DNA of 64,000 nucleotides from Candidatus Binatia bacterium. Its GTDB lineage: Bacteria; Desulfobacterota; Binatia; HRBIN30. Below are positions 24,182 through 51,939 of the stretch, in pieces. A program made the translations under genes and the position numbers. The notes beneath the pieces were generated by a model. That model saw nothing but the letters and a program-made list of their open reading frames with translations. It ran no database searches and had not been told where the DNA came from. Within the stretch, counting starts at the first letter, position 1, and every line of letters starts with the position of its first letter. The DNA is taken from NCBI GenBank assembly GCA_044450645.1, contig JBIOJG010000015.1:39512-103511 (forward strand), given 5' to 3'.

Positions 24182-24857
24182 CGAGCTGCTCATGCCCTTC
24201 TGTCGGTCAGATTACCGAGGACGGACGACAAGAAAGCCAGTGCTTCGGTGCCTGCTGGGCGCGCTCGTCCTGGTGGTGCTGACCGGATGCAATCCTTTCC
24301 ACCGGATTCCGAGGATTTCCGAACCGATCAGCCTCCTTGCCGTAATGCCGATGGAGTCCGTTGAGCGCGTGAGCGCCACCCCGGCCGAGGGGGTGGAATC
24401 ATTACCGCCAGATGCCGCGCGGAAGGTGACAGCAGAGGTGTACGGTGTACTGACCAGCTCATCGGATTGGCGTGTGGTGCCGGATCTGACGGCGATGCAG
24501 GCCCTCAGCCGCATCAAACCAGGAGGTGACCTCGCGTCCCGCGCGCGTGCCCTCGGTCAAGAGGTGGGTGCGGACGGAGCGCTGTTTGGCACGGTCTCGC
24601 GTTATGTCGAACGCGTGGGCACGGGATACGGCGCGCGCCAGCCCGCGGCCGTTGCCATCACCCTGCAACTAATATCGGTCAAGTCGGGCAAGATCCTGTG
24701 GAGCGGTTCATTCGATGAGACGCAGCGGCCGCTCTCGTCCAATCTCTTCAATTGGTGGCAATTCTGGCGTGGCGGCCCGCGCTGGTTCACGGCCCAGGAG
24801 TTTGCCCGCCTCGGCGTCGAGCATCTGTTGAGGGACCTGTCGAAGAGGACCGAATAA
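24174..24857 (+). CDS. Putative lipoprotein (lipobox LTGC; LpoB/GNA1162-like guess)
   Basis: N-terminal signal with lipobox (LVLVVLTGC). Soluble domain with no confidently recognisable motif. The start overlaps the aspS stop. Confidence 0.5.
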   Translation: MSSELLMPFCRSDYRGRTTRKPVLRCLLGALVLVVLTGCNPFHRIPRISEPISLLAVMPMESVERVSATPAEGVESLPPDAARKVTAEVYGVLTSSSDWRVVPDLTAMQALSRIKPGGDLASRARALGQEVGADGALFGTVSRYVERVGTGYGARQPAAVAITLQLISVKSGKILWSGSFDETQRPLSSNLFNWWQFWRGGPRWFTAQEFARLGVEHLLRDLSKRTE

Positions 24858-24900
24858 TCGGCCAGCCCAAGGGGCTTGTCGGCGCGGGCCTCGGTGCGGA

Positions 24901-25338
24901 TCACCGTTCCATTTTGTTGTAGTCCACGCTCAACCAGCGTTCGGGGGTGAGGCAGACGAGGATTGTACCGCGGGCGCGCTCCCCGGCTGTGGCCTCCAGG
25001 TACCAGTTGCCTAACTGCTCGCCGAGGTAACGGTATGCCATGGGACGCACGTCGCGCTCGAAGTCGGGTTCTTCGATGGTTACCGGACCTTCGACGCTGA
25101 CATACTGATAGGGCGGTGCTTCCACCTGTACGCACAGGCTCAGACGCCCAGCCTGCTGAATCAACTTTGCCTTCGTCGACGCTGCGCCGGTGAGGAAGCG
25201 CACGGCACTGCCCGGCTCGTAGGCGTACCAAATGGGAAGCGTCAGTGGCCCGCGCTTCGGATCGGCGACGCTGATAACTCCCACCCGCTGACCTGCCAGA
25301 AACGCCTCACGCTGTGCCTTGCTCATTGCCAGGGACAT
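24901..25338 (-). CDS. Pyridoxamine 5'-phosphate oxidase-like (PPOX class) FMN/F420-binding split-barrel protein
   Basis: MSLAMSKAQREAFLAGQRVGVISVADPKRGPLTLPIWYAY … VRFLTGAASTKAKLIQ has the typical PNPOx-like fold signature. AAGGAG RBS 7 nt upstream of ATG 25338. The extension in the ORF track was rejected. Confidence 0.7.
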   Translation of the reverse strand: MSLAMSKAQREAFLAGQRVGVISVADPKRGPLTLPIWYAYEPGSAVRFLTGAASTKAKLIQQAGRLSLCVQVEAPPYQYVSVEGPVTIEEPDFERDVRPMAYRYLGEQLGNWYLEATAGERARGTILVCLTPERWLSVDYNKMER

Positions 25339-25369
25339 CCCGAGCTCCTTACTCTTTGGTGGGGTTCGT

Positions 25370-26035
25370 CTAGCCGCCGAACCACGCCGTGTGGAAGTAT
25401 CGGACGACGATGGTAAGCACGATGCTGGCGGCAATGACCGCTGGGTTCAGCTCGCGGAGTCCCTGCAACGTCGCGTTTCCGGTGAACGGCAAGAATGGAG
25501 TCGCGGCATGGAACGCACGGAAGCGAGAATCTCCGCTCGCCAGCTTACGCTGATCCTGGTGCCAGCCCCCGATGAGTGCGAACAGGACAAAGCCTCCGAA
25601 GAAGACAACATCGGCCGTGCTGCCATTCGGTAGCAGATGGAGCAGCCCAAAGAGCGCGAACGCCATGAACGTTGGGTGACGCGTGATACGGTACACATCT
25701 GTGGGCGTGGGGTCGCCCGGGACGGGACCCGCCGGACTGGGCCGTACTAGGCTTGCCAACAGCAGAGTGAAGGCGACCAGCATACCCACGTACATCACCC
25801 AGTGCAAAGGCGTCCCCCTGGGCAACGTCCACAGCCATGGGCCGGCATGCTTGTGTGTGAAGTAGGTCCACACCAGCGGCACGAAGAAGGCGAGGGCCAA
25901 CAGGGAATACAGAGCACGAAAACGAGCGTCACCAACGCTCGCTACGAGGGGACCACGGATCGGCGCGCTCGACAGCGCAATGTGGCCCCCGGCAAATCCA
26001 GCCCAGAGAAGAAGAATCACGATGGTTGCAGACAT
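25370..26035 (-). CDS. NnrU / isoprenylcysteine carboxyl-methyltransferase-like integral membrane protein
   Basis: Five to six TM helices. The conserved VYRITRHP and HLLPNG motifs are typical of the NnrU/ICMT-like family. ATG at 26035. Confidence 0.6.
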   Translation of the reverse strand: MSATIVILLLWAGFAGGHIALSSAPIRGPLVASVGDARFRALYSLLALAFFVPLVWTYFTHKHAGPWLWTLPRGTPLHWVMYVGMLVAFTLLLASLVRPSPAGPVPGDPTPTDVYRITRHPTFMAFALFGLLHLLPNGSTADVVFFGGFVLFALIGGWHQDQRKLASGDSRFRAFHAATPFLPFTGNATLQGLRELNPAVIAASIVLTIVVRYFHTAWFGG

Positions 26036-26281
26036 AATGCCCCTCCCGTGTCGCGGGGGCAAAGACTACCGCTTTGAATGCTCGGACGCCAGCGGAACGC
26101 AGCCGGCGCGCGAGCGGACAGGTGACGGAATTGTGCAGCCAGAGAGTGGCCGCTGACCTGAGCGCTTGAAATTGATGCCGCTGTCGTTTCATATGAAAGC
26201 CGGGCTGGATTCCGAGGATCTGGTGCGCAGCCTTCAGGCCTGGATGGCCGATCGGGAAAGCGTATACGCCGTGAGGGCGAG

Positions 26282-27724
26282 ATGAAGCGTAAGCTTGTGG
26301 TCCTATGGTTCGTGCTGGCGGTCAGCTTGTGCGCCGTGACCTTAGCGGAGAAGAGCGGCCACCCCTACGATTGGAACCATCCACGTCCCGAGGAGTACAG
26401 ACCCCCCGGCAAGCCGTACAAGCCCCTCCGCCAGCCTCCGGGGGCTCTTCTTCCACGGCAACACCACACGGGAAACTCCAAATCGCTGGACGCGCAGGTT
26501 GTCGCCAGTCTGGCCGGCATCTTCATTCTGGCGATCGGGACCCAATGGCTGGCATCGCTTGCCCGCATCCCGACGGCGTTGCTGTTAGTTGCCGGTGGTG
26601 TTGTGGCTGGTCCGGTCACCGGTCTCCTCGATCCCGACGTCCTCTTCGGGAACCTGCTGCTTCCCGTCGTATCCCTATCACTAGCCTTGGTTTTGTTTCT
26701 GGAAGCCCTGAGTGCGGGGAGGTCCGTATGGGACGTCCGCAGTCCGGTCATCGAACTGGCCGGCGTCGGCATGCTGATCTGCTGGCTGATCAGTGCCGCC
26801 GCCGCCTATCTGGTCCTCGACTGTGGCTTTCCTTTGGCGGTGCTGCTCGGGGCAATTCTTGCGATGACCGGACCTCCTGCGGCCGTCGGGCTCTGCCGCC
26901 GCCGGCGGGCCGGTCAGCTGAACGCTGTCCTGACCGGAGAAGGGATTGCTCTCGACCTGATCGGAAGCGTGCTGGTCATTCTGATACTCAAAGCACTTGT
27001 GGTTGGTGGCTTTCGCCAGTTCAGTGTCGTATCGGTGTTGGCGGCGCGCGACACCCTCGCTGTCGGCATCCTGTGCGGGATGCTCGGCGGAGGAGCCTTG
27101 TACGTCCTCCTAAAGCGCCAGTGGATTCCGCAGTCTTTAGCGCGCTCGCTTTGCTTCATGCTGGTCATCGGCGTGTTTGCCGTTTCAAACACGTTCCAAA
27201 CGGACTCAGGTTTTCTGGCGGTGATCGCCATGGGAGTGTTGCTGTCCAGTCAAGAGATCGTTCCAGCGAAACGTATCGTCCAGTTGTACGGCAACCTGTA
27301 CGAATCGCTCATCGCCGCCGTGATCATCGTGCTGTTTGCGCGGGTGTCGATGGCAGATTTCATTCACCTCGGCGTCGCCGGTGGTGTCTTCGTTGGGATC
27401 GCTATTGTGGCCGCTCGCCCGCTGGCTGTGGGACTGTCGACCGTCAGATTGCGATTCGACTGGCGAGAACGGATAGGCTTGTCGGTGATGGGGCCCCGCG
27501 GACTGTTGCCGGCCGGGCTCTCCGCTATCTGCACCTTCCGCCTGATTGAGATCGGCGATTGGGAGGCGACGATTCTTGTACCCCTGTCACTGTTGGTCGT
27601 CGCCGGTACGGTGATTGCGTGCGCTGCCGCCTCCCCGTTTGTTGCGCGTTGGGAGCAGGAGGCTGTCGAGCTGGACGCTCCAGGAACGCCGCAGGCTTCC
27701 GTGAACGCCGGTACGCTCGCGTAG
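26282..27724 (+). CDS. Cation:proton antiporter (CPA1/Na+/H+ exchanger family)
   Basis: ~12 TM helices. LAGIFILAIGTQWLASLARIPTALLLVAGGVVAGP … LFLEALS is typical of Na_H_Exchanger. 480 aa. Confidence 0.75.
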   Translation: MKRKLVVLWFVLAVSLCAVTLAEKSGHPYDWNHPRPEEYRPPGKPYKPLRQPPGALLPRQHHTGNSKSLDAQVVASLAGIFILAIGTQWLASLARIPTALLLVAGGVVAGPVTGLLDPDVLFGNLLLPVVSLSLALVLFLEALSAGRSVWDVRSPVIELAGVGMLICWLISAAAAYLVLDCGFPLAVLLGAILAMTGPPAAVGLCRRRRAGQLNAVLTGEGIALDLIGSVLVILILKALVVGGFRQFSVVSVLAARDTLAVGILCGMLGGGALYVLLKRQWIPQSLARSLCFMLVIGVFAVSNTFQTDSGFLAVIAMGVLLSSQEIVPAKRIVQLYGNLYESLIAAVIIVLFARVSMADFIHLGVAGGVFVGIAIVAARPLAVGLSTVRLRFDWRERIGLSVMGPRGLLPAGLSAICTFRLIEIGDWEATILVPLSLLVVAGTVIACAAASPFVARWEQEAVELDAPGTPQASVNAGTLA

Positions 27725-28028
27725 AAGGCCCGCGTTTTGCCGGTGTCCAGGGGTTGAGGGACCACAACGGGCAACCAGCCGTGTTTGTCGGCCCGGAGGC
27801 GCGCTAGCCAATCCCATGACCAGCTAGCTGCCTTACGACGTGCAGTGTCAGCAGGCTGAGGGGCCGAGCAGCTCCGATTCTACGGCCGGTTCGGGCTAAG
27901 CATGTCCTCAGCGCATCTGGGGAAAACGGCACGGAAGTGCCAGCGCCGCCGGCCTGAAATCCAACTCCGGCGTGGGTACCAATAGGCTTTCCGGCTGATG
28001 GCACGGACATTGTTGTAGAGTGCAAGCA

Positions 28029-29339
28029 ATGAACGCGACGCCTCCAAACAAGAGGAACACGGTCGTCCTGCTCCGGTGGGTTCTCATCATCGCGTTCTCC
28101 TATTTGCTGGTGCTGGACGGATCCCAGCCGTACCCTCAGGCCTGTGTGGTGGTGTTGATCGCCGCGGCCCTGGCTTCGAATCTCGTGGTTGCGCGGATAC
28201 CAGAGGCCTGGGCGCTCCACCCGGTGTTTGATTTCGGCGTGGTCCTCTTCGATTCTGCCTGGGTCACCTTGGGATTGATCTGGGCACCGAATGTGTCCGA
28301 GGACTTGTTCTTGCTCTATTTCCTCGTGATCTTTGTCGCCGCCATGGGCGAGTCCTTGTTGACCACAGTGGGCAGCGCCGTCCTCGTCGGGATCGTCTAC
28401 GGGGCGACGTTGTCATTTCAGCCTAGTGGTGATTTCCGGCTCACATCCACAGCGCTGCTGCGCGTGCCATTCCTCTTCGTCGTGTCACTGTTTTATGGCT
28501 ACTTCGTGACGGAAATCCGTACTGGCCGCAGTGAAGCGAATGATGCCAAACTCCGCGAACAAGCCAAGAGTGAGTTGCTGGCCGCGGTGAGTCATGACTT
28601 GCGCGGTCCCCTCGGAAACGTGGAGAACCTGATCGCGTTGGTTCTCGAAGATGAAGCGCAGAAGCCGGCGGACGCCCGGGTGCTCCTCTTGCGCGCCCAG
28701 GCGAACGTGCGCCGCGTCAGCCTGCTGGTCACCAATCTCTTGCAGGCGGCCTGCATCGAGGCCGGTCAGCTGCAACTGCAAACGGCCCCCGTCCAGCTCA
28801 ACGACATCGTCGAGGACATGTTCAATATCGAGTCCGGGGCGGCTTCGCTGAAGCAGGTGACGCTCCGCAAAGAAGTCGAACCTGAGCTTCCAATCATCGA
28901 TGCGGACTTCATGCACATGGGGCGAATCGTTCAGAATCTCGTCGACAACGCCATCAAGTACACCAACGCAGGCGGAACGGCAGTCATCCGCACGGCGCAC
29001 GATGCAGAGACGGTGAGTGTGAGTGTGGAGGACAGCGGGTCCGGGATGGACGAGGCGCAGTGCAAAGAGCTGTTCGCCCCGTACCGGCGCGTGCATCTTG
29101 GTGGCTACACCCCGGGGATGGGGCTTGGCTTGCACATCGTGAAGAAACTGGCGGAAGCCCAGGGAGGCACGGTAATCGTGCATAGCACGCCAGGCGTGGG
29201 ATCGACCTTCGTCGTCTCGCTTCCGCGCACCCTTGCGCCGAGAGCTTCCACTCCGGTGAAGAGACGCAAAGCCGCGGTACAGTCCCCTTCGTCGGTGCGC
29301 CCGCTGGACCACCCGCTGCCCAGCCCTCGGGCGGCCTGA
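28029..29339 (+). CDS. Membrane sensor histidine kinase (multi-TM sensor, HisKA, HATPase_c)
   Basis: Five to six N-terminal TM helices. H-box LAAVSHDLRGPL. N/G boxes LVDNAIKYT … DSGSGMD … GMGLGLHIVKKLAEAQGG. ATG at 28029 (MNATPPNK). Confidence 0.8.
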   Translation: MNATPPNKRNTVVLLRWVLIIAFSYLLVLDGSQPYPQACVVVLIAAALASNLVVARIPEAWALHPVFDFGVVLFDSAWVTLGLIWAPNVSEDLFLLYFLVIFVAAMGESLLTTVGSAVLVGIVYGATLSFQPSGDFRLTSTALLRVPFLFVVSLFYGYFVTEIRTGRSEANDAKLREQAKSELLAAVSHDLRGPLGNVENLIALVLEDEAQKPADARVLLLRAQANVRRVSLLVTNLLQAACIEAGQLQLQTAPVQLNDIVEDMFNIESGAASLKQVTLRKEVEPELPIIDADFMHMGRIVQNLVDNAIKYTNAGGTAVIRTAHDAETVSVSVEDSGSGMDEAQCKELFAPYRRVHLGGYTPGMGLGLHIVKKLAEAQGGTVIVHSTPGVGSTFVVSLPRTLAPRASTPVKRRKAAVQSPSSVRPLDHPLPSPRAA

Positions 29340-29368
29340 CGGCGCGTGGCCGGCGTTCTCGCTTCTGG

Positions 29369-30538
29369 TCAGAGTTTGTAGCGCTGCAGCAACTGGCGTG
29401 CGATCACCAGACGCTGGATTTCGTTGGTGCCTTCGCCGATGATCATCAGCGGCGCGTCGCGGTAGTAGCGCTCGACCGGGAACTCGTTGGTGTAGCCGTA
29501 GCCGCCGAGGATACGCATGGCTTCGGTGGACACCTCGAGACAGGTTTCCGAGGCGAACAGCTTGGCCATGCCGGCTTCCAGGTCGCACCGCTCCCCGCGG
29601 TCCTTTTTCTCCGCGGCCTGATAGGTGAGTAGCCGTGCCGCCTCGATTTTGGTTGCCATGTCCGCCAGCTTGAGCTGGATCGCCTGGTGTTCGGCGATCG
29701 GCTTTCCAAAGGTCTGGCGTTGCTGGGCGTACTTGATGGCTTCAGCGAAAGCCGCCTTGGCAACGCCCACGGCACGGGCGGCGATATTGATCCGGCCCAC
29801 TTCGAGGCCGCCCATCACGTGGGAAAACCCTTGGCCTTCCTTCCCGCCGATCAGGTTGGCTGCGGGCACCGCGTAATCCTCGAAGTTGACCTCGCAGGTC
29901 TCGACGCCTTTGTAACCCAGCTTCTCCATGTCGCGGCTCACGGTTACGCCCGGCCCCTTCTCGCCGACGAACATGCTGATGCCGCGGTACGGCGGATCCG
30001 CATCTTTGTCGGTTTTGGCGGCAATGGCGTACAGCGTCCCATAGCGCGCGTTGGTGATGAACATCTTGCTGCCGTTCAGGATATAGACGTCGCCCTGGCG
30101 CACTGCGGTGGTACGGATGCGCTGGACATCACTGCCGGCATGCGGTTCGGTGAGACACAGCGCGCCGCGGTGCTCGCCCCGTGCCATGGCCGGGAGGTAG
30201 CGCTGCTTCTGGTCCACCGTGCCGTGCATGCGCAACATATACGCGAGCATGAGGTGGGTGTTGAGAACACCGCTCAGGCTCATCCAGCCGCGGCACAGTT
30301 CTTCGACCACCATGGCGTAGGTGGTGACGTCGAGTCCCAGCCCACCGTACTCCGGTGGGATGGTGGCGCCAAACAGGCCCAACTCCTTCATCCGTTCGAC
30401 GAGCGCGTGCGGGTACTCATTGCGATGTTCCAACTCACTGGCCACCGGCATCACCTCGCGCTCGACAAAGCGTCTCACGGTGGCAACAACCTCTTCACGC
30501 ACGTCACTGGGGGTGGTCACGGCATCCTCCGTAGGCAA
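29369..30538 (-). CDS. Acyl-CoA dehydrogenase family protein
   Basis: LCLTEPHAGSDVQ, YILNGSKMFITN and GGYGYTNEFPVERYYRDA are ACAD hallmarks. 389 aa. Confidence 0.85.
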   Translation of the reverse strand: MPTEDAVTTPSDVREEVVATVRRFVEREVMPVASELEHRNEYPHALVERMKELGLFGATIPPEYGGLGLDVTTYAMVVEELCRGWMSLSGVLNTHLMLAYMLRMHGTVDQKQRYLPAMARGEHRGALCLTEPHAGSDVQRIRTTAVRQGDVYILNGSKMFITNARYGTLYAIAAKTDKDADPPYRGISMFVGEKGPGVTVSRDMEKLGYKGVETCEVNFEDYAVPAANLIGGKEGQGFSHVMGGLEVGRINIAARAVGVAKAAFAEAIKYAQQRQTFGKPIAEHQAIQLKLADMATKIEAARLLTYQAAEKKDRGERCDLEAGMAKLFASETCLEVSTEAMRILGGYGYTNEFPVERYYRDAPLMIIGEGTNEIQRLVIARQLLQRYKL

Positions 30539-30689
30539 TTTGGTAAACCATGTTCATGGGTGCCGATCAATGGTGAGTGCTGATGCGTAATTCGTGACTC
30601 GGATTTCGACAGTCACGGATCACGCATCACGCGTCATGAGTTACGCCGTTCCTTGATCCGCCTGGTTCCCGCTGTTAGAGGGAAGCCCG

Positions 30690-32906
30690 ATGCGCATCGT
30701 CCGCGTACTCGCGTTGCTGTTGCCGGTTTGGGTTGCGGCGGCGCAGGGGGTGCCTGAGCCGACGCGCAGTACCGAGGTGTTTACTGGTGGCGCCGAGGTA
30801 CTGTCGCCGCGCGAGAAGCCCGACAAACCGGTGACGACGTACTGGCGGGTACGACTGTCTCTCAAAATGACAGATGCGCGGCCGGGAGCTCACCTCCAAG
30901 TCTTGCTCCCACTGTCGGACGACCACCAGCAGATTCTCGGGCGTTCGGTGGAGATGGACGGGTTCAGCTACCGCGAGCAACCGGAACAGCCCAATTTGTT
31001 GGGATATTGGGCGCGCACTGCACCGTCGGCTGACCCGACGCAGATCGAGTACGACGTGAACGTGGCTCTGACCGATACGGCGCGTGCCATCCCGCCCACG
31101 CCATTGGCGGAGTACAGCGCGCCGGATGCCGAAAGCGGATACCTGCAGCCATCGCGGATGGTGCAAAGCAGCGATCCGGAATTCCGCCGTCGGGCACGTG
31201 ACTTGATCAAAGAAGCACGCACGGTCGAAGATGCCGCTTGGGCGCTCTTTCAATACACTGCGGCCTTCGTTCGGATCGGCCCTGGGGAGGCCCAAGAGGA
31301 TGCTTTGACGGTGCTGCGGCAGGAACGGGGGAACAGCGCTGGCAAGGCCCGGTTGCTCACAGCGCTGCTGCGCAGCATCGGCGTCCCCGCCCGCGTGGTT
31401 GGGGGACTGAAACTGGAGGACGCGACCAAGAAGCGTGCGACGATCTCGTGGGTGGAAGCCTATTTCGACGGGAACTGGGTGCCGCTCGACCCCAGCGGTG
31501 GATACTTCGGCTGGCTGCCGAATCACTATCTGGCGTTGTACCGCGACGACTTGCCGTTGATCGTGCACTCGGCAGGTTTGCCTCTCGAATACGATTTCTT
31601 CATCCATCGCACCAGCCGGGAGGCGATCGCGAGACATCCGGATCCTGCCCTGAAAGGAACCGGAAGCGCCGAAACGCAGGTGGGTATGGAACGGGTGCGC
31701 ACGGCGGCGAGTTACGTGGAACGGCCGGTTGCTTCGGTCGTCGTGATCGCCGACCAGAGCGTGCCCGACGCGGTGAGCGACCGCATGCTGCGAGAAGCGC
31801 AGGCGGAGCAGATCAACCTGGTGGTTTTGCACGCCCACTTCGAGTCACGTTACTTCCGCGAGCAGTACCTGCAGCGTCTGGTGGACAACAACCTCGGCCT
31901 CATTCGCAATGCGCACGTCCTGTTGATTGCTACGCATGACGATGCAGGGCTGTATGCGTTGATGACCCTGGGAGAGAAGAACCTGGCCCTCGGCGACATG
32001 CGGATCGTGATCTCGGGCAAGTTTCCGCAAGCGGTAGGCAAAGTCCTGGGAGCGGTGTTGTATCGCTTGGTGTCGGCTGGCGAGGTGGTCCTGGTGAACC
32101 AGCCGTCCGAGCTTCTGGGATTGTGGGAGATGGTTCGCGCCAACGTCATCGACGGGGTGCCGATGGTGGAGGAGGCGCGCAAGTGGGAGCTGGAGCCGCT
32201 GGTGCTGAATCAGAGCGTGTTGGATGATTTGGGTTTCTGGCGCAACCGAGTGGTCGGCGCCTGGGCTCGAGGGGTACGGGCACAGGTGCCGTTGCAGGCC
32301 CTGAACCTGATCCTCGTGCTCCCGGTGATTGCCGCGATCATCGTCGTGGCCCGTACCGTGATCGGCGTGGAGACCTTCGGCACGTTTTCCCCGGTCATCG
32401 TGTCACTAGCATTCCTCACCACCGGATTGCGCTGGGGGACCGCCATCTTTGCGGTGATCGTCGGAGTGGGCGCGTTGGTCCGCGCGCTGCTGCAACGGGT
32501 TCGACTGCAGTTGGTTGCCCGCCTGGCGATTTTGATCGCCGTGGTGGCGGGCGTGATGGCGGCGCTGACGGTGGTCGGAGCATCGTTTGGAATCGGTGCC
32601 TTGATGAACGTCAGCATCTTTCCCATGGTGATCATGTCGAACGTGATCGAGAACTTCTCGACGTCACAGGCTGAGTTCGGTACCCGCGAGGCCGTACGTT
32701 TGACTATCAACACTCTCGGCCTGGCAGCGATCTGCTACCTGGCGATCGACACGACGGGTCTGCAGTCGGTGCTGCTGGCTTTTCCGGAATTGCTGATCTG
32801 TTCCATTGCCATCGACATTGCCTTGGGGAAGTGGCGCGGTTTGCGGCTGCTGGAGTATTTGCGTTTCTTTGATTTGACGCGGCGCTCTGACCGATGGACT
32901 CCCTGA
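30690..32906 (+). CDS. Inactive transglutaminase-like domain fused to a C-terminal 7-TM domain (7TM_transglut-type)
   Basis: Signal peptide, then a periplasmic transglutaminase-like core (GNSAGKARLLTALLRSIGVPARVVGG) in which the catalytic Cys is Ser and the His position is lost (ISWVEAYFDGNWVPLDPSGG). Seven predicted C-terminal TM helices. Confidence 0.7.
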   Translation: MRIVRVLALLLPVWVAAAQGVPEPTRSTEVFTGGAEVLSPREKPDKPVTTYWRVRLSLKMTDARPGAHLQVLLPLSDDHQQILGRSVEMDGFSYREQPEQPNLLGYWARTAPSADPTQIEYDVNVALTDTARAIPPTPLAEYSAPDAESGYLQPSRMVQSSDPEFRRRARDLIKEARTVEDAAWALFQYTAAFVRIGPGEAQEDALTVLRQERGNSAGKARLLTALLRSIGVPARVVGGLKLEDATKKRATISWVEAYFDGNWVPLDPSGGYFGWLPNHYLALYRDDLPLIVHSAGLPLEYDFFIHRTSREAIARHPDPALKGTGSAETQVGMERVRTAASYVERPVASVVVIADQSVPDAVSDRMLREAQAEQINLVVLHAHFESRYFREQYLQRLVDNNLGLIRNAHVLLIATHDDAGLYALMTLGEKNLALGDMRIVISGKFPQAVGKVLGAVLYRLVSAGEVVLVNQPSELLGLWEMVRANVIDGVPMVEEARKWELEPLVLNQSVLDDLGFWRNRVVGAWARGVRAQVPLQALNLILVLPVIAAIIVVARTVIGVETFGTFSPVIVSLAFLTTGLRWGTAIFAVIVGVGALVRALLQRVRLQLVARLAILIAVVAGVMAALTVVGASFGIGALMNVSIFPMVIMSNVIENFSTSQAEFGTREAVRLTINTLGLAAICYLAIDTTGLQSVLLAFPELLICSIAIDIALGKWRGLRLLEYLRFFDLTRRSDRWTP

Positions 32907-33841
32907 TCGAACGCCTGCGGCGAGTGCGGCGGGAGGCGCTCGGTTTGAACCGTCGCAACCAGGAATTCCTGGCGCCGCTCAACCCTCCGCGTTTGATCGG
33001 GCTGGTTGACCACAAGGTACACACCAAGGAGATCCTGCGCAGACACGGCCTCCCGGTGCCGGATACCTTTGGGTGCTACACACGCCAGCGCGAGCTCGGA
33101 CTGTTGGCACGTGAGGTCGAGCGTCGCGCGGAATTCGTTCTGAAGCCGGCGCGCGGCGCCGGTGGTGACGGCGTGGTCGTGATTGCTGGTCGCGCCAACG
33201 GCCGCCTGGTGAAGGCCAGCGGGCCGAGTCTGCGATTGATGGACCTGGTGGCGCACGCTGCCGACATCATTGCGGGCGCCTTCTCGCTGAGTCAGGCGCG
33301 CGACGAGGCGGTCCTCGAATACCGCTTGGCACCGGAGCCGGCGTTGGGAGCGTTTAGCCCCGGAGGCATTCCGGACATTCGCATCCTGGTGGTGCGCGGG
33401 GTGCCGGTGATGGCGATGCTGCGCCTACCCACACGGAGCTCCGACGGGCGGGCCAACCTACATGTCGGTGGCGTCGGGGTGGGGCTTGATTTGCACAGTG
33501 GCAGGGCGGTACACGCCATCTGGCGGGACCGCCCAATTGTGGTCCATCCCGATACCCAACAGCCGTTCTCCGGATTGCGCGTGCCCGAGTGGAACGAGAT
33601 CCTCATGGCTGCGGCACAGAGCTACGAGGCAATTCCGCTCGGCTACTTCGGTATCGATATCGTCATCGATGCCAAGCTCGGTCCCTCGATCCTCGAACTG
33701 AACGCTCGTCCGGGCCTGAGCATACAGCTCGCCAACCGTCGGGGACTGCGCCGGATGCTTGACGAGTTGAATGCGCGGCATACGGAGAAGCTCGCTGCGA
33801 AGGATCGTGTCGAGGTTGGGCTGGAGATCTCCGCGACTTGA
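32894..33841 (+). CDS. ATP-grasp fold amidoligase (RimK-like alpha-L-glutamate ligase-related)
   Basis: FVLKPARGAGGDGVVV … IRILVVRGVPVMAMLRLP … GVGVGLDL … FGIDIVID … LELNARPGLSI are ATP-grasp features: K-loop, large-loop and the D/E-x-N Mg site. Its start overlaps the upstream stop. Confidence 0.75.
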   Translation: MDSLIERLRRVRREALGLNRRNQEFLAPLNPPRLIGLVDHKVHTKEILRRHGLPVPDTFGCYTRQRELGLLAREVERRAEFVLKPARGAGGDGVVVIAGRANGRLVKASGPSLRLMDLVAHAADIIAGAFSLSQARDEAVLEYRLAPEPALGAFSPGGIPDIRILVVRGVPVMAMLRLPTRSSDGRANLHVGGVGVGLDLHSGRAVHAIWRDRPIVVHPDTQQPFSGLRVPEWNEILMAAAQSYEAIPLGYFGIDIVIDAKLGPSILELNARPGLSIQLANRRGLRRMLDELNARHTEKLAAKDRVEVGLEISAT

Positions 33842-34658
33842 CCCGGCCTTGCAATCCCTGTTTGGTTACGCGGTGTCGCAGTTACAACTGTCCCTCCTGC
33901 TCTCGCTGCTGTGTGTGGCGACACTGGCGATTGCCGGGTGGCGTCCGTATGCCGAGGAGTTTCGGGAACGGTTGCCGCAGATCGTCGCGGCATTCTTGCT
34001 CGTCGGCATTCTCGCCGTGGCTGTCTTTTACCCCGTGACGTCCTTTGGGGAAGCCGAGGAGATTGATCCGGAGACCATCTGGTTCCCCTCCCTGCTGTTC
34101 GGGCACTGTATCCTGTCCGCATTCCTGTTCCTCTGGTGGCGGCTGCGCCGGGACATTGCGTTTGCCGCGTTTCTTCATCTGTCCTGGAGTGGCTGGTGGG
34201 ACAAGATCCGCCACGGCGTAGCCACCGGCTGCGGTGGTTGGGTTGTGACGGTGATGGCTACGGGTGCCGCTGCCGGACTGTTTGGCCTGACCGGCCGCCT
34301 CTCGGCGCCCACCGAGGCGCCGCCGCTGATCCTCTGGCTGGCCGAGCTGCCGATCCTCTACCGATTGATTATCGTTGGTGTGGCGATGACGGTCGAAGAA
34401 GCCTTCTTCCGTGGGTTTCTTCAGCCGCGCTTCGGGTTGCTGGTGTCGAGTATTCTGTTTGCTTTGAGCCATTTCAGCTATGGCCTGCCGTTCATGATTG
34501 TCGGCGTGTTCACCATCTCGCTGATCATCGGTCGTACGTTCGAGCGCGAAAGAGATCTGCTGCCGTGCATCATTGCTCACGGTATCTTCGATGGGGTGCA
34601 ACTACTGATCGTCTTGCCTTGGGTCGTACACACATGGTCGCCCGCGGGGCCGCTCTAA
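33771..34658 (+). CDS. CPBP-family (CAAX/Abi) intramembrane metalloprotease
   Basis: Multi-TM protein with motif 1 EEAFFRGFLQ, motif 2 FALSHF and motif 3 IIAHGIFDG. ATG 33771 lies inside the ATP-grasp gene. An alternative TTG/GTG start just after the 33841 stop (e.g. 33849) is equally plausible. Confidence 0.7.
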   Translation: MRGIRRSSLRRIVSRLGWRSPRLDPALQSLFGYAVSQLQLSLLLSLLCVATLAIAGWRPYAEEFRERLPQIVAAFLLVGILAVAVFYPVTSFGEAEEIDPETIWFPSLLFGHCILSAFLFLWWRLRRDIAFAAFLHLSWSGWWDKIRHGVATGCGGWVVTVMATGAAAGLFGLTGRLSAPTEAPPLILWLAELPILYRLIIVGVAMTVEEAFFRGFLQPRFGLLVSSILFALSHFSYGLPFMIVGVFTISLIIGRTFERERDLLPCIIAHGIFDGVQLLIVLPWVVHTWSPAGPL

Positions 34659-34790
34659 ACATGTCGCGTGCTGCAGCGCCGGCGCACAACCAGCGCGGCC
34701 AGGCGCTGATCGATGCGGTCTATGAGAGTCTCGCGTGACTATGCGAGCCGTCCACGTGGAAGGCCACACTCATTCTGCTGCTCATCCTCA

Positions 34791-36053
34791 TTACGGTCGT
34801 GTTGAACTCAGCGACCGCAAGTACTCCACCAGATCCCGCATGTCAGCGTCGTGAAAGCGGGGCCAGGGAATGCCGCGCTCACGAATCTTTATCTCCATCG
34901 CCGGCGCATGGTTCCACAGGGCCGAGGAAAGGGCCAACGGAGAAGACAGGGCAGGGGAGCGGGAGAGATCGGGGGCGAGCCGTTTCTCAGTGCCACGCGG
35001 GGTGTAGTGGCAGAGGATGCATCCCTTTTCGATAAAGACGTCGTGCCCCTTCACGGCATCACCGGGCGGGTCAAAGTACTGCAGGAAGAACAGGTAGGCC
35101 ATTAGGTCCGAGATCTCCTGGTCAGAGAACTGTGGCAACGAAATGCCGAGCGCCTGCATCGTGGCCCACATGTTTGGCTCGTGATTCCACAGCCGGCCGG
35201 CGACTTCTGTCACGCTGCGGTGGAGATCTGCCGTGGCGAGGTCTGGTCCAACGTGGCCGCCGGTTCCACCGACACTGTGGCACTTGATGCAGCCTTTCGC
35301 TTCGAAGACCTTCCTGCCCCTCGCCGGACTACCGGGAGCCATGTCTTTCTTTTCTGTACTCGTATCGCTCGAGGCGCTCCGAATGTAGGCAAAGATGTGC
35401 GCCAGGTCCCCGTCGGAAAACTCCGGGCGCGCGATGCCGCTCTCGCCCATTTTGAGAGCCATCGCCGGGCTGTGACTCCACATGGCAGCGGCCAAGAACA
35501 AGGGCGAGGAGTAGTGTTTGTACTTATCAAGCGACGGCCCCACCTGTTTGCCGGCACCACCGATGGCGTGGCACTTGGCACACCCCATTCCGGAAAACAG
35601 CAGCTCGCCCTTGCTTGGGTCACCCGGTCGGTCGAAGTAGTTCAAGAAGTAGAGAAAGGCCGCGAGATCCGCCATCTCCTCGGTACTGATCGTCAAGTGG
35701 GGGATGCGCCGCTCGCGCATCTTCTCGATCATCTCGGGCGAATGATTCCACAAAACTCCCGCCAGTTGCATGACACTCTGCCACACCCCGACTTTCCCCA
35801 AGTCGGGACCCAAGGTGCCGCCCTCGCCCCAAATCGAATGACACATCGGACAGCCCTTCTGCAGGAAGACTTGCCGACCCGCCAGGGGATCGGTGGGCAA
35901 CGCGTCGGTTTCCGTGTCGGCGCACCACGATCTCACGGGCGCTAGAAGCATCCCGCTCAGCAGCACTGCGAAGGCCCATCCCAACCATCGCCGTCTCGCC
36001 GTTGAACTATGGAGTGCCACGCTCACGCTGCCTCGCTCAAACCGGGAAAACAT
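34791..36053 (-). CDS. Tetra-domain c-type cytochrome (four tandem class-I monoheme cytochrome c domains)
   Basis: Four CxxCH sites (CPMCH, CAKCH, CIKCH, CILCH). Each follows a G…KGC and precedes G.GG..GPDL, so four repeated class-I domains. N-terminal signal-like region (RRRWLGWAFAVLLSGMLLAPV). ATG at 36053 chosen; 36122 is possible. Confidence 0.75.
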   Translation of the reverse strand: MFSRFERGSVSVALHSSTARRRWLGWAFAVLLSGMLLAPVRSWCADTETDALPTDPLAGRQVFLQKGCPMCHSIWGEGGTLGPDLGKVGVWQSVMQLAGVLWNHSPEMIEKMRERRIPHLTISTEEMADLAAFLYFLNYFDRPGDPSKGELLFSGMGCAKCHAIGGAGKQVGPSLDKYKHYSSPLFLAAAMWSHSPAMALKMGESGIARPEFSDGDLAHIFAYIRSASSDTSTEKKDMAPGSPARGRKVFEAKGCIKCHSVGGTGGHVGPDLATADLHRSVTEVAGRLWNHEPNMWATMQALGISLPQFSDQEISDLMAYLFFLQYFDPPGDAVKGHDVFIEKGCILCHYTPRGTEKRLAPDLSRSPALSSPLALSSALWNHAPAMEIKIRERGIPWPRFHDADMRDLVEYLRSLSSTRP

Positions 36054-36209: not shown

Positions 36210-37562
36210 TCAGGCGGCGTCCCGTGGATCGAGCACTATGCCGAGACGGAACGCTTTGTCGTACAAAGCACGGCGACTGATGCCGAGTCGCTTGGCGACT
36301 GCGGTTTTATTCCAGTTCATATCGACCAGTGTGCGCTGAATGAGTTCACGCTCCAAGTCTTCGAGCGTGGTCAGCTCCTGCGGCAAGCTACGATTCTCGG
36401 CCGGCTCGAGTGAGGGGAAATCCCGTCGCCGCAGCACCGGCCCCTCCAACATGATCATGGCCCGTTCGACGACGTTCTCGAGTTCCCTCACGTTTCCCGG
36501 CCACGAGTAGCTGCGCAGGAGTTCGAGCGCGTCAGGGGCGATGCTGGGAACGGGTTTCTTGACGTTGATGGCTTGGATCCGAACGAAATGGTCCAGCAGC
36601 AACGGAATATCCTCGCGGCGCTCGCGCAGCGGCGGCATGTGGATGTTCACCACACTGAGGCGGTAGTACAAGTCCTCGCGGAACGTACCGGCGGTAATCA
36701 TGCGGCTGAGGTCGCGGTTCGTTGAGGCGATGATCCGCACGTCAGCCTTGATGATGCGTTCGCCGCCGACGCGTTTGTATTCTTTCTCCTGGATCACGCG
36801 CAGCAGTTTCGCCTGAAAGGCGGAGCTGGTCTCAGCGACTTCGTCGAGAAACAGCGTGCCGCCGGCGGCCGTCTCGAATAGCCCTTTCTTGGTGATGATC
36901 GCACCGGTGAACGCGCCTTTCTCGTGTCCGAAGAACTCGCTCTCGATCAACGTCTCGGTGAGAGCGCTGCAATTGACGGCGAAAAAGCTGCGTTCCGCGC
37001 GTGGCCCGTGATAATGCAAGTAGCGCGCGACGAGTTCTTTACCCGTACCGCTCTCCCCGGTGATCAGCACGCGGCAATCTGAATCATGCAGCTTTTCTAG
37101 CGTTTCGATGATGGCGCGGATTGGCGGCGACTGGCCGACGATCGGCCGCAGCGGAAGGGCGCCGAGTTGACGCCGCAGGGACGCATTCTCCGCAACCAAA
37201 CGGCGGTAGTCGAGCGCCTTGCTCACCTTGAACGCGAGTTCGTCGGGAGGGAAGGGCTTGGCGAGAAAATCGGCGGCGCCTTTCTTCACCGCCTCCACCG
37301 CGGCTTCGATGCTGGCGAAGCCGGTCACCATGATCACCACCGAGCCCGGCCGTTCCACGTTGATGCGCTCGAGCAGGGTCATGCCCGAGACATCGGGAAG
37401 TTTGAGGTCCAGGAGGATCACGTCGGCGGGTTCCTTCGCGAGCGCGGCGAGCGCTTCGGCACCGGTGGAGCAGGTGCGCACCGCATAGCCCGCCTGCGAG
37501 AGAACTTGCTCCATGTTGAGCGCCATGGAGAGTTCGTCGTCGACGACCAAGACGGTGTTCAT
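36210..37562 (-). CDS. Sigma-54-dependent response regulator (NtrC family: REC, AAA+, Fis-type HTH)
   Basis: REC (VLVVDDE … [10 protein letters not shown]). AAA+ Walker A ([10 protein letters not shown]). GAFTGA motif ([11 protein letters not shown]). Walker B LFLDEV. C-terminal HTH ([15 protein letters not shown]). Confidence 0.9.
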
Positions 37563-38881
37563 GCAGCCTCCTCACGTGCCAGGGGGCTGGCGTCGACCGG
37601 AAGACCGACCGTGAAAGTCGAGCCGCTTCCAGCTGCGCTGTCAACGCGCATCGTGCCGCCGAGCCGGCGGACGATGGTCAGCGAGAGCGAAAGACCGAGG
37701 CCGACGCCATCGGCGCCGTTCTTGGTGGTGAAAAAGGGGCTGAAGACGTCATCCAAGTGCTCACGCGGAATGCCGTGTCCATTGTCGCGTACCCGCACCT
37801 CCACCGTCTCCGGCTCCGCCCCGAGGCCGGTTTCGACGACCACCTCTCCGCCGTCTTCCACGGCGTCGAGGGCGTTGCACAACAGGTTGACGACTACCTG
37901 CCGCAACGCGCCCTCCTGCCCGTGTACCCGTAAGCCCGGCGTCAGGCGTTGCTCAATGTGGACGTGCCGCTGAGTTGCTCGGTTCTCGAACAGCAGGATG
38001 ACGCCGTGGGTCACCTTTGCAATGTCGACACTTTGTGGCGTCCCGTCCTGCTGGGGCGAAAGCGCCAGCAAGCTGCGGATAACTCCGCCGATGCGAAATG
38101 CAGACTCCGCGATGGTGGCGAGATCCTGCAGATAGCGTTGTGACAGGCCGTCGTGCTCCGCCTGCCGCCGCATCACCTCTGCCTTGCCGACGATGATCGC
38201 GGCGGGATTGTTGATGTGATGGGCCACGTCGGCAGCGAGACGGCCGACGGACAGGTGCCGGTACGTCTGCTCGAGGATCTGATTGCGGTGCTGCAGTTGG
38301 AGATTGACCTCGAACAGGCGGTGGCGATTGGTGCGCAACTGGCGGGAAACCAGGGCCAGCGAGTGCGCAATAAAGAACGCAAATCCCAACCGCAGCATCA
38401 GTTCCTCCGGTGCGCATCGCTGCGCCGAGGGAAGCCAGAGATACAGGGTCGTGTACAACCCGGCAAAGCCAGTGGCGGCGGCGATGCCCACCGTCGCGCC
38501 GAAGTAGAACGCGTGCAGTGCGACGAGCACGTAGAACGCGAGATACACGCCGGACATCGGCTCCGCTGACCACAGACAGATGAGGAAGAGGAACACGAGA
38601 TCCGCAGGGAGTACCGCCAAATAGGCGCGGGCACGGACCTGCGGGCGACGCCACACCTGGAGATACAGCGTCAGTGAGTACGCGACGAACGCTGCGGTGA
38701 GAACAAAGCCCTTGAGCGTTACGCCTGGTGCGGCGAATCTCCATAACCACACGGCTGCTGCCCCAGCGGATCCCACGCGCAACGCGAGAAAATACCGGTC
38801 CGCCTGATCAAACGCGGACGCCGATACCTGGCTGTCCGCGCTAGGCGAGAGTTGGGAGAACCACACGGAAAACCGATCCAT
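37559..38881 (-). CDS. Membrane sensor histidine kinase (partner of the NtrC-like regulator)
   Basis: About six TM helices. H-box AADVAHHINNPAA. HATPase N/G boxes (LLCNALDAV … DNGHGIP … GVGLGLSLSLTIVRRLGG). Stop overlaps the NtrC-like ATG (ATGA). ATG at 38881 chosen. Confidence 0.8.
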   Translation of the reverse strand: MDRFSVWFSQLSPSADSQVSASAFDQADRYFLALRVGSAGAAAVWLWRFAAPGVTLKGFVLTAAFVAYSLTLYLQVWRRPQVRARAYLAVLPADLVFLFLICLWSAEPMSGVYLAFYVLVALHAFYFGATVGIAAATGFAGLYTTLYLWLPSAQRCAPEELMLRLGFAFFIAHSLALVSRQLRTNRHRLFEVNLQLQHRNQILEQTYRHLSVGRLAADVAHHINNPAAIIVGKAEVMRRQAEHDGLSQRYLQDLATIAESAFRIGGVIRSLLALSPQQDGTPQSVDIAKVTHGVILLFENRATQRHVHIEQRLTPGLRVHGQEGALRQVVVNLLCNALDAVEDGGEVVVETGLGAEPETVEVRVRDNGHGIPREHLDDVFSPFFTTKNGADGVGLGLSLSLTIVRRLGGTMRVDSAAGSGSTFTVGLPVDASPLAREEAA

Positions 38882-40232
38882 GGCCAACTTTACTGCTGAC
38901 CTCAATGCTGCCCCCGTGAGCCTTGATGATCCCGTAGCTGACCGAGAGGCCCAGCCCCGAGCCGTCGCCGCTCTTTTTCGTGGAGAAGAACGGGTCAAAG
39001 ACGCGCCCGATGGTCTCCGGACGGATCCCGGTGCCCGAGTCAATCACCTCCACGTGGATGCAACCGTTGTTCGGCCAGGTACGCAACCGAATTGTCCCAC
39101 CCTCCGGCATCGCATCTTTCGCATTCTGCAACAGGTTGAGGAACACTTGCTTCAGTTGGTTGGCGTCAGCACGTACGAGCGGGAGCGCGTCGTAATGCTC
39201 GGGGACGATCGTGACATTCACGCGTGCGAACGACGGCCCGACAAAGCGCACGGTTTCGCGAAGAACCTGGTTCACATCGGTTGCCGCCAATGTCGTCTCG
39301 GACTTCCGCGCAAAAAGCAGCAGGCCACGCACAACCTCGGCGATGCGGCCGATCTCACGGCCCATGACGTCGAAGTCCTGGCGGCAGAGTTGCGGGCAGC
39401 TACGCTCGTCCGCCATCGCCTGCAACTCCTGGGCCTTTCCCATCATGATGCCGAGGGGATTGTTGATCTCGTGCGCGATTGCGGCAGCCATCTCACCAAC
39501 GACGCTGAGTTTCTCCGCTTGGATAAGCTGTGCTTCAACCTCACGATTGCGTGTATGCAGTCCCATCTCGGTACGGCGTGCACGGAGAAAGATGTGTGCC
39601 AAGAGAACGAAGAGCACGGCGCCTACTCCGAAGGATATGAGCCACAGCATCCGCCGGGCAGTGTCGAGGTTGCGGAAGAAGGTTACGGGGTTCTTGTGGA
39701 TCTCGAAAACCGCGTACACCTTGCCGTCGGATGACGCTGTCGGGACGTAAACCTGCAGCATGCGGCGACCGTCAGAGCCCTCACCACCGCCGGCGCGCAA
39801 CGCCTTGGGTGTTGCCACCTCTACCCCCGGCTGTCCCTTGAGCGCGGCGGCCAGCTGAGGGTTGCTGTGTTCGTCCTCTCGCATCCATTGTGCATCGTCG
39901 GACCAGACCGCCGTTCCGTGCTCATCGTAAACCTTGACGTGGAGAATTTCGGGAATGCTGGTGAGATGCTGCGTGAGGTGGACGAAGGCCCAGACCTTGT
40001 TATTGCTGGCAGCGAAGCGGAACTGTTCTGGAGTCAAATCCAGGTTCGTCATTGCCCGCACCGCCTCCGTCGTAACCTGGGCTTCACGGTCGAAGAGGTT
40101 GCGCGTCAGCAGGCGGTCTACCGCACCACCGAGGACGGCGATCGCGAGCCCACTGCACAGCAGCATGGCCGCGAGAAATCGCTGGAAAGGGTCCAGCCGG
40201 ATCTTGGTTCGCACTGTCCTGTCCGATCGCAT
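38841..40232 (-). CDS. Sensor histidine kinase with periplasmic sensor domain (second kinase in the block)
   Basis: TM, ~170-aa periplasmic region, TM. H-box AAAIAHEINNPLG. N/G boxes (LLQNAKDAM … DSGTGIR … GSGLGLSVSYGIIKAHGG). ATG at 40232 (MRSDRTV…). Confidence 0.8.
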   Translation of the reverse strand: MRSDRTVRTKIRLDPFQRFLAAMLLCSGLAIAVLGGAVDRLLTRNLFDREAQVTTEAVRAMTNLDLTPEQFRFAASNNKVWAFVHLTQHLTSIPEILHVKVYDEHGTAVWSDDAQWMREDEHSNPQLAAALKGQPGVEVATPKALRAGGGEGSDGRRMLQVYVPTASSDGKVYAVFEIHKNPVTFFRNLDTARRMLWLISFGVGAVLFVLLAHIFLRARRTEMGLHTRNREVEAQLIQAEKLSVVGEMAAAIAHEINNPLGIMMGKAQELQAMADERSCPQLCRQDFDVMGREIGRIAEVVRGLLLFARKSETTLAATDVNQVLRETVRFVGPSFARVNVTIVPEHYDALPLVRADANQLKQVFLNLLQNAKDAMPEGGTIRLRTWPNNGCIHVEVIDSGTGIRPETIGRVFDPFFSTKKSGDGSGLGLSVSYGIIKAHGGSIEVSSKVGHGSVFRVVLPTLA

Positions 40233-40429
40233 GCCTGGTGGCGAAAGGCAAGCGCCGTACTCCGTCCAGGAAATAGGCTGCGCGGGAAGAACGGCCCCAG
40301 ACCGCTTGCAGATCCCCGCTGTGCATTTATTGCGCGGTGTGCAGAAGCTGCGCATTGCGATTTCGGTTGACCTGTGTCGGCGTGGGCTGTCAGCCAATCA
40401 GAAACTGCGGTGGCCGTATGACGACAAGC

Positions 40430-41757: not shown

Positions 41758-41889
41758 GGCGCACACCGACTACCAGGGAGGCGTTCGGCCGAGGGAGGGT
41801 ACCGTATGACCTAAAGCACTGGAGGGGATGGCAATTGGACGTATCTAAGTCACAAAGTCACTAAACGAAAATTATGGGGGTTAACTTCT

Positions 41890-42693
41890 ATGAAGATGAA
41901 GATGTTGTTGTGGATGGCAGCTGCAGTATTACTGCTTAGCCCGCCCGTCCTCTGGGCCGCGCCAGGTGATCCCGGCACGGGTCTGGCGACAACCAATCAT
42001 GACTTCACCGACGCGGCGAATTACACGACCAGCACGCCTGTGGGTCTCTGTACGTTCTGCCACACGCCCCACAAGGCGCAGCACACTGCGCTGTTGTGGA
42101 ACCATAGCGATACGTCGAACACCTTTTCGTGGACCGACAACACGAAGACCGCAGCTGGCACGAGTCTACCGACGTTCACCAAGACCTGGAACGGCCCGAC
42201 GCCGAAGTGCCTCTCCTGCCATGACGGTAGCGTAGCGGTCGGCGATGTTGCCTGGTTCGATGAAAAAGCCCAGCTCATCACTACCACTAGCGTCACGCCT
42301 GGTATCCTCGATGCCAGCGGCAAAATCATCGATACATCGCATCAGGTGGGCGTCGGTGGCAGCATGAACGGCAACCACCCCGTGGTGGTTCCATATCCGG
42401 GCGTTGGCTCGAAGCACTATGCCGGCGGGAACAGCGGCACCAGCATCGTCACCGCGGAGTGGCAGGGTGACCCGACCGCCCTCGGTGTCGTGCTCTATAA
42501 GGCCAGTGACAACACCCTGGCGGCCAGCATCAACCGTGTGACCAACTCGCCTGTTGGCGCAGACAACCTCGGCGTCGAGTGCGCCTCGTGTCATGATCCG
42601 CACAACAAGCTCACCGTCGACGCGAAATTCCTACGCGGCATGATGACGGGGAACGACACCAATTACCTCTGCCTGAAGTGTCACATCAAGTAG
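41890..42693 (+). CDS. Secreted tetraheme c-type cytochrome
   Basis: Signal peptide MKMKMLLWMAAAVLLLSPPVLWA. Four CxxCH sites (CTFCHTPH, CLSCHDG, CASCHDPH, CLKCH). The N-terminal module is homologous to the start of the 12-heme protein at 47211. Confidence 0.85.
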   Translation: MKMKMLLWMAAAVLLLSPPVLWAAPGDPGTGLATTNHDFTDAANYTTSTPVGLCTFCHTPHKAQHTALLWNHSDTSNTFSWTDNTKTAAGTSLPTFTKTWNGPTPKCLSCHDGSVAVGDVAWFDEKAQLITTTSVTPGILDASGKIIDTSHQVGVGGSMNGNHPVVVPYPGVGSKHYAGGNSGTSIVTAEWQGDPTALGVVLYKASDNTLAASINRVTNSPVGADNLGVECASCHDPHNKLTVDAKFLRGMMTGNDTNYLCLKCHIK

Positions 42694-51888: not shown

Positions 51889-51939
51889 TATGCCCTTGTT
51901 TTTGTGCTCTTTTCTCTCGTCCTCTGCGAGAGGACGCGA

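Follow-up and report, generated by a model that had tools for sequence, protein, structure and literature searches.

The closest described system to the locus analysed here is the rloABC operon of Pseudomonas aeruginosa (Lormand et al. 2025, mBio; PMC12239564). Its first gene encodes RloA, a secreted protease of the retropepsin-like type, which cleaves polyglutamate in vitro. In a triple rloA mutant, cells are sensitive to low osmolarity and abnormal in shape, and both biofilm formation and antibiotic tolerance are impaired; deletion of rloB or rloC suppresses these defects. No biochemical activity has been reported for RloC (PMC12239564). We analysed a 64,000-nt stretch of a Candidatus Binatia bacterium contig (JBIOJG010000015.1, positions 39,512 to 103,511; hereafter the window), in which three open reading frames (ORFs) on the same strand (+) fill positions 30690-34658. 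The first two, g1 and g2, encode a variant RloB-like membrane protein and an RloC-like ATP-grasp ligase, and the third, g3, encodes an intramembrane protease of the CPBP (Rce1-like) type. In our judgement, it is somewhat probable that g1-g2 form a self-sufficient RloBC-type module and that g3 is an active CPBP protease whose presence beside them is lineage-specific and separable. The coordinates of all features are collected in Table 1.

The earlier note on this DNA had described g1-g2 as a known but poorly characterised pairing of an inactive transglutaminase on a seven-transmembrane (7TM) platform with a RimK-related ATP-grasp ligase. The pairing stands, but it is better characterised than was claimed, since it matches rloB and rloC, for which genetics are available (PMC12239564). 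Hidden Markov model searches bore out both domain assignments: g1 matches Transglut_core (PF01841, 62.4 bits, residues 168-268) and 7TM_transglut (PF14402, 160.5 bits, residues 538-729), and g2 matches ATPgrasp_ST (245 bits against a cut-off of 31.4). With the Pfam match of g3 given below, the three genes exist with the domains that had been read in them. The nearest relatives are named Candidatus Binatia or ‘Deltaproteobacteria bacterium’, the latter as a metagenome-assembled genome (MAG), and over 200 homologues of g1, each about 740 aa long, bear the name Candidatus Binatia.

A canonical rloABC operon was found on a plasmid of Legionella adelaidensis (L071); its products are a Zn_protease/PF05618 protein of 152 aa, an RloB of 508 aa (PF14400 and PF14402) and an RloC of 314 aa. 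Both systems have a 7TM_transglut protein with a non-catalytic transglutaminase-type ectodomain, followed by an overlapping ligase of the ATPgrasp_ST/TIGR02291 type. The ligases are 42% identical, whereas g1 and the Legionella RloB align in the 7TM domain only, over its last 198 residues, at 38% identity. The NCBIfam model for RloB (NF052267, inact_TG_RloB, ‘osmotic stress tolerance membrane protein RloB’) gives 132 bits on g1 against a cut-off of 900, and aligns at model positions 312-504 only, which is the 7TM part. In place of the PF14400 ectodomain (Transglut_i_TM), which scores 152.6 bits in the Legionella RloB and has no match in g1, the Binatia protein carries PF01841 preceded by a beta-sandwich. 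It also carries an extra alpha/beta domain of about 160 aa between ectodomain and 7TM domain, for which the 508-aa RloB has no counterpart, and reaches 738 aa. Because the ectodomain family differs and a domain is inserted, we regard g1 as a homologue of RloB and not as RloB in the sense of the curated model. The hosts also belong to different phyla, Binatota for g1-g2 and Gammaproteobacteria for rloABC, and the Binatia locus has neither a nearby RloA nor a leading protease gene, both of which rloABC has. What is new here, the pairing itself being known, is the architecture of the g1 ectodomain, the lack of a nearby RloA, and the clade-specific CPBP or YkuD neighbours.

The ectodomain of g1 resembles an enzyme that has lost its catalytic centre. 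In the AlphaFold2 model (mean pLDDT 77), the beta-sandwich together with the transglutaminase-like core matches PDB entry 3isr, a transglutaminase-like cysteine protease of Cytophaga hutchinsonii (Foldseek E 5e-16, TMt 0.74), so that both the sandwich and the papain-like core fold are shared with that group. Searched as a single sequence, the transglutaminase region found no match among PDB sequences, and a family profile (78 members) was needed for the alignment with solved structures. In this alignment, the catalytic Cys, His and Asp of 3isr and 6g49 fall on S216, I252 and D267 of g1; the replacement of Cys by Ser and of His by Ile, which had already been read from the sequence, was thus correct. 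Across the g1 family, the ‘Cys’ site is occupied by S, T, P, M or V and the ‘His’ site by I, V or T, while D267 is invariant. Unlike active cysteine proteases of PF01841, then, g1 lacks the Cys-His-Asp triad and keeps the Asp alone. Since the Cys and His sites are variable across the family, the core is truly inactive as a thiol enzyme; the loss of these residues is ancient.

The alpha/beta domain that follows the core is peculiar to this lineage. It is built of five beta-alpha units and, when modelled alone, reaches a pLDDT of 85. It has no Pfam match even at E 10, and the comparison with PDB folds returned nothing significant (best E 6e-3). Only 21 matches were found among 1.84 billion representative proteins. 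In all seven of the full-length matches (738-760 aa) the domain lies at about residues 340-555, and the shorter matches look fragmentary.

Conservation of the pair was surveyed with one genome per species, which yielded 57 loci, essentially all from Binatia-like MAGs, with gene calls anchored on the tblastn positions of g1 and g2. The two genes are adjacent in 57/57 of these loci, and their overlaps are mostly 4-13 nt. In the window the overlap is 13 nt, the ATG of g2 preceding the stop codon of g1, which suggests translational coupling. Together with the window and one further locus (L008), the survey gives the set of 59 loci used below. The ligase motifs KPxxGxGGxG, GRANLHxGG and LELNxRPG are kept in at least 95% of them, and are present in g2 as KPARGAGGDG, GRANLHVGG and LELNARPG. 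The protein also passes, narrowly, the NCBIfam model TIGR02291 (‘alpha-L-glutamate ligase-like protein’, 318.2 bits against a cut-off of 314.2). From these matches, g2 is predicted to be a cytoplasmic ligase of the alpha-L-glutamate-ligase-like family with intact ATP-grasp motifs. We considered the C-terminus of g1 as a substrate that g2 might extend and rejected it, as that C-terminus is neither conserved nor acidic.

A second known system that invites comparison is RimK/RimB, in which ribosomal protein S6 is polyglutamylated and the tail trimmed by a retropepsin-like enzyme. There, as at the present locus, the ligase is paired in some lineages with a protease gene, and the shared logic would be that of a ligase plus an antagonist hydrolase. 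The differences are considerable: g2 falls well short of the RimK family model (62 bits, cut-off 143), and the CPBP protease is of the glutamic/metallo type while RimB is an aspartic retropepsin. Since the partner of g2 is a membrane protein, its target is likely to lie in the envelope, unlike the ribosome on which RimK acts.

Where rloABC has an antagonist, the Binatia loci show none of the same family. With the Legionella RloA as a tblastn query, no RloA/PF05618 was found in the window and 70 related loci (1.15 Mb; best E 0.25), the rest of the genomes lying outside the search, although RloB-7TM and RloC queries match 70/70 loci in the same set. Nor is there a PF05618 match in the Pfam-annotated neighbourhoods of g1-g2. 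As RloBC activity without RloA is harmful in P. aeruginosa (PMC12239564), an antagonist would be expected, and g3 presents itself for the part. It could then be proposed that the three genes are a true three-component system, in which CPBP replaces RloA by non-orthologous displacement, trims the g2 peptide at the membrane and keeps it at a non-toxic level. How g3 is built, controlled and distributed bears on this proposal.

By its domain, g3 belongs to the CPBP superfamily. It matches PF02517 (Rce1-like/CPBP) at 53.6 bits against a gathering score of 22.4, and has all three catalytic motifs of CPBP/Rce1-like proteases (CAAX, bacterial Abi, Mrt): EExxxR at 34395 (EEAFFR), FxxxH at 34458 (FALSH) and HxxxD at 34578 (HGIFD). 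These three are invariant in 14 orthologues and likewise in a set of 19, and g3 is, judging from them, an active-looking intramembrane protease. Within the superfamily it scores under the cut-offs of all named CPBP subfamilies, including the myxosortase-type ones (best, MrtJ, 39.2 bits against 75; Mrt_core, 34 against 100; MrtS, MrtP and MrtC). We saw neither a partner protein with a C-terminal sorting signal nor a prenylation system in the neighbourhood of g3, and found no link between CPBP proteases and ATP-grasp or 7TM_transglut genes in the searchable literature.

The start of g3 had to be revised. It had been placed at ATG 33771 or TTG 33849, in a gene thought to overlap the 3′ end of the ligase gene; neither codon is supported, and the overlap is an artefact of taking the longest ORF. 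In five relatives (L009-L011, L013 and L014), the GTG homologous to the g3 start is closely preceded by an in-frame stop, in L008 the homologous GTG is the sole available start codon, and the NCBI protein that is 100% identical to g3 (P0121) has 261 aa. On these three grounds we place the start at GTG 33873, which leaves a gap of 31 nt after the g2 stop codon (TGA, 33839-33841).

Most of this gap is taken up by a non-coding motif of 27 nt (TTGACCCGGCCTTGCAATCCCTGTTTG) with the consensus cTTGAC-N10-(A/T)ATCCC-NN-TTTG, at a constant 8 nt before the CPBP start codon. A strict pattern finds it in 10 loci, to which L022 was added by alignment; the bearers are the window, L008, L011, L013-L017, L025 and L067, with others among L074-L094. 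In the window, the TTGAC of the motif contains the g2 stop codon, and the motif matches once against an expectation of 0.05. Elsewhere in the 2.2 Mb of loci, on both strands, it was not found. Across loci the g2 stop codon lies 31-164 nt before the CPBP start while the motif remains tied to that start. The motif is present in contigs without g2 upstream (L075, L077, L080 and L090) and missing from L069, whose CPBP gene is translationally coupled to g2. Being bound to the CPBP start with or without g2, it indicates that g3 brings its own control region. Its geometry (TTGACC, 17 nt, then TTTGGT at −12 to −7 of the GTG) is promoter-like and would fit a leaderless mRNA, although the −10-like hexamer is without the usual A at −11. 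A sigma-32-like or sigma-54-like element was rejected by eye for unsuitable spacing. A scan for sigma-70 promoters and terminators gave nothing beyond shuffle expectation, and no terminator between g2 and g3. Rfam found no RNA element at the g2/g3 junction when run on 30000-35500, a match to RT-15 being at chance level (E 0.45).

The distribution of the protease gene is that of a frequent neighbour within one lineage. A CPBP orthologue directly follows g2 in 11 of the 59 loci (window, L008, L011, L013-L017, L022, L025 and L067), and also in L069 and L070, where its ATG overlaps the g2 stop codon by 4 nt. In a neighbour-joining tree of g1 and g2 the CPBP-linked loci form one clade, which spans 62-94% identity in g1; CPBP is absent from every locus in which g1 identity is 61% or lower. 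Inside that clade, a sister subclade (L020, L021 and L023) carries a YkuD L,D-transpeptidase after g2 instead; L012 and L043 have other genes in this position, and in L018 the CPBP gene is 5.6 kb away. The comparison of neighbourhoods that the earlier note called for thus returns CPBP in a single clade, and YkuD or other genes in other loci.

The reverse test, in which metagenome contigs were scanned with the CPBP alignment and the upstream DNA was checked for g2, showed that the protease is not bound to the pair. Orthologues at least 60% identical to g3 adjoin g2 in 12 cases and do not in 6; between 50 and 60% identity the counts are 3 and 4, and below 50% they are 0 and 31. Four of these contigs (L075, L080, L090 and L097) have a divergent gene followed by CPBP with no g1-g2 between them, and the divergent gene is an orthologue (82-92% identical) of the acyl-CoA dehydrogenase that precedes g1 in the window, so the same neighbourhood exists without g1-g2. 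Either the pair was deleted or moved in these four, or it was inserted in the lineage of the window. The acyl-CoA dehydrogenase, for its part, precedes g1 in 21 loci from different clades (its family has 22 members overall). Because this enzyme is syntenic with g1 over a wider range than CPBP is, adjacency in this group of organisms counts as weak evidence of function.

We consider the three-component system unlikely, if still to be taken seriously. Beyond the expected antagonist, it has on its side the invariant catalytic motifs of CPBP and the distribution just described, several features of which weigh against our own proposal of a separable neighbour. The gene after CPBP changes in nearly every locus while g1, g2 and CPBP hold together over the whole identity range of the clade, and CPBP identity declines in parallel with g1 identity; both favour g1-g2-CPBP as a retained block. 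In L069 and L070, the overlap of 4 nt and the missing motif make co-expression likely. The slot after g2 is held in the sister subclade by YkuD, another envelope peptide-processing enzyme, and the unlinked CPBP orthologue of L068 adjoins a homologue of the large secreted protein found after g1-g2 in 16 loci of the deep clades. Also to be counted against a self-sufficient module is that our RloA search was limited to neighbourhoods, so that an RloA may be encoded elsewhere in these genomes, and that the step leading to a peptide product is an analogy, as no substrate or product is known for ligases of the RloC type. On the other hand, most Binatia with g1-g2 show no CPBP nearby, about a third of the close CPBP orthologues are unlinked, and CPBP is retained beside the acyl-CoA dehydrogenase where the pair is missing. 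It has an upstream motif independent of g2, its synteny is surpassed by that of an apparently unrelated enzyme, and cleavage of polyglutamate is not a known CPBP activity. As a frequent but separable neighbour with its own upstream motif, the protease gene lends a three-gene system, and the ligase/protease pair that had been proposed, weak support; what holds of that pair is the position of CPBP after g2 in one clade. A partnership of the protease with g1-g2 is, from gene order and motifs, possible.

A more specific version of the displacement idea would extend it to both neighbours, with CPBP in one clade and YkuD in the sister subclade having taken over the job of RloA, that is, processing an RloC-type peptide handled by a new RloB architecture. 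We find this doubtful. If true, it would be a case of non-orthologous antagonist replacement in a ligase/hydrolase system of the envelope, with a lineage-unique extra periplasmic alpha/beta domain in the RloB-like partner, and the first clue that RloBC produces a peptide that is C-terminally exposed on the membrane surface. If, on the contrary, the CPBP link is synteny only, the locus is an unremarkable lineage-specific form of a two-gene module that is already known.

Under the reading that we lean towards, a two-gene module with a separable protease, domain identity, intact motifs, gene order and distribution are what we observe; for the chemistry, and for any interplay of protease and ligase, we infer the following. 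By analogy with rloBC of P. aeruginosa, g2 would make an acidic peptide that stays free or is attached as a tail to an acceptor in the envelope. The same analogy suggests that g1 could carry the g2 product across the membrane, or display it through a non-catalytic, peptide-binding ectodomain. The acceptor may be an envelope glycopolymer, as suggested by the occurrence of g1-g2 in one gene string with glycosyltransferase-like genes in deep Binatia. The CPBP gene would have arrived downstream of g2 at the base of one Binatia clade, and g3 would most likely be expressed, and able to work, independently of g1-g2 from its own promoter-like element. Trimming of the g2 product by g3 in this clade is conceivable, although the data do not require it.

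The glycosyltransferase-like genes also open a different explanation, in which the ligase amidates a sugar acid or adds an amino acid to an envelope polysaccharide, g1 is a part of the export or attachment machinery, and CPBP is unrelated. The Pfam family of g2 is itself named ‘Sugar-transfer associated ATP-grasp’. In 19 loci of deep Binatia clades, two or three paralogues of about 388 aa (family C0, with a weak Glyco_trans_1_2 match) immediately precede g1 on its own strand, in many cases overlapping it, and in L001 GT2 genes and an ABC exporter come before them. The window holds three tandem paralogues of the same family (49577-53289, −; about 385-450 aa, 34-54% identical to L028_U2), adjoined by a PMT_2 glycosyltransferase (53172-54833, −). 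In the clade of the window, however, these genes are some 15 kb off and on the other strand, canonical rloABC operons have no glycosyltransferases, and RloA cleaves polyglutamate in vitro (PMC12239564). A glycan pathway of this kind appears improbable to us.

In Firmicutes, CPBP/Abi proteins have a role in bacteriocin self-immunity, and the ‘Abi’ name of the superfamily might suggest a defence or bacteriocin-immunity locus around g3. This we hold to be barely credible: PADLOC models match none of g1, g2 and g3, no bacteriocin, toxin or mobile-element genes lie near them in the annotated neighbourhood of the window, and GC content is even across the window (60-66%), with no change over the region.

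In P. aeruginosa, the RloB/RloC system influences how cells tolerate osmotic stress and antibiotics, what shape they take and how they form biofilms. A variant that has no RloA nearby, combines a dead ectodomain with a lineage-specific domain, and is accompanied by alternative neighbours (CPBP, YkuD or glycosyltransferase-like genes) could help to narrow down both the product and the site of its processing.

Table 1. Features of the g1-g2-g3 locus and associated elements (window positions unless a locus is named; res, residues).
Feature	Position	Strand	Description	Basis
g1	30690..32906	+	738-aa variant RloB-like membrane protein	ORF, Pfam, AlphaFold2 model
Predicted signal peptide of g1, MRIVRVLALLLPVWVAAAQG	30690..30749	+	Hydrophobic helix, res 2-17 in model	Reading of the sequence
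g1 beta-sandwich	30834..31073	+	res 49-128	Strands in AlphaFold2 model
g1 transglutaminase-like (papain-like) core	31125..31613	+	res 146-308	Pfam, profile alignment, family alignment
S216	31335-31337	+	Cys site
I252	31443-31445	+	His site
D267	31488-31490	+	Kept Asp
g1 disordered linker			res 316-348	AlphaFold2 model
g1 alpha/beta domain	31737..32207	+	Five beta-alpha units, res 350-506	AlphaFold2 model
g1 7TM_transglut domain	32292..32882	+	Seven helices, res 535-731	Pfam PF14402, model
g2	32894..33841	+	315-aa cytoplasmic ATP-grasp ligase, RloC-like (predicted)	ORF, Pfam, NCBIfam
Non-coding motif, TTGACCCGGCCTTGCAATCCCTGTTTG	33838..33864	+	8 nt upstream of the g3 start codon	Comparison across loci
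g3	33873..34658	+	261-aa CPBP (Rce1-like) glutamic-type intramembrane protease (predicted)	Pfam, start comparison
Acyl-CoA dehydrogenase	29369..30538	−	Divergent syntenic neighbour of g1, not counted as a functional part	Pfam
YkuD after g2 in other loci	L020 ~6118-6700; L021 13122-13703; L023; L007 9272-9853		193 aa, 4-nt overlap with g2 stop	Pfam (77.8 bits)

In the deep clades, g2 is followed by a recurrent block that consists of an opposite-strand NUDIX gene and genes for a secreted protein (about 1270 aa), a HEAT_2 protein (about 420 aa) and HupE_UreJ_2 (L028, L034, L036, L037, L039, L041, L042, L063, L064, L066 and others). The 1270-aa protein has a weak CarboxypepD_reg match and, by eye, a PHP-like HHVH...SPDS stretch. 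Its homologue in L068 (6100-9261; 30-33% identity over about 1000 aa) comes directly after the unlinked CPBP orthologue. Taken together, the links among CPBP, the large secreted protein and the glycosyltransferase-like genes hint at a common envelope theme.

Upstream of the locus, gene order in the window differs from that in L004, a relative at 82% identity. There, g1 directly follows a group made up of HisRS, AspRS, a small ORF and NnrU (−) (L004 991-5508; compared with window 21111-26062). In the window, the space between NnrU and g1 holds in addition a Na+/H+ exchanger, a histidine kinase and the acyl-CoA dehydrogenase (26282-30538), and these extra genes point to local rearrangement around g1-g2.

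Downstream, the minus strand of 36210-40397 encodes a sigma-54-dependent response regulator (36210-37562) and, next to it, two histidine kinase ORFs (37559-39043 and 38841-40397). In their longest forms these kinase ORFs share about 200 nt, so the first of them probably has its start further downstream. Beyond them, the stretch 40546-49064 (+) encodes NHL-repeat beta-propeller proteins (40546-41757 and 46183-47214), multihaem cytochromes with paired CXXCH motifs (41890-42693 and 47211-49064) and a 722-aa protein without a Pfam match (44015-46183).

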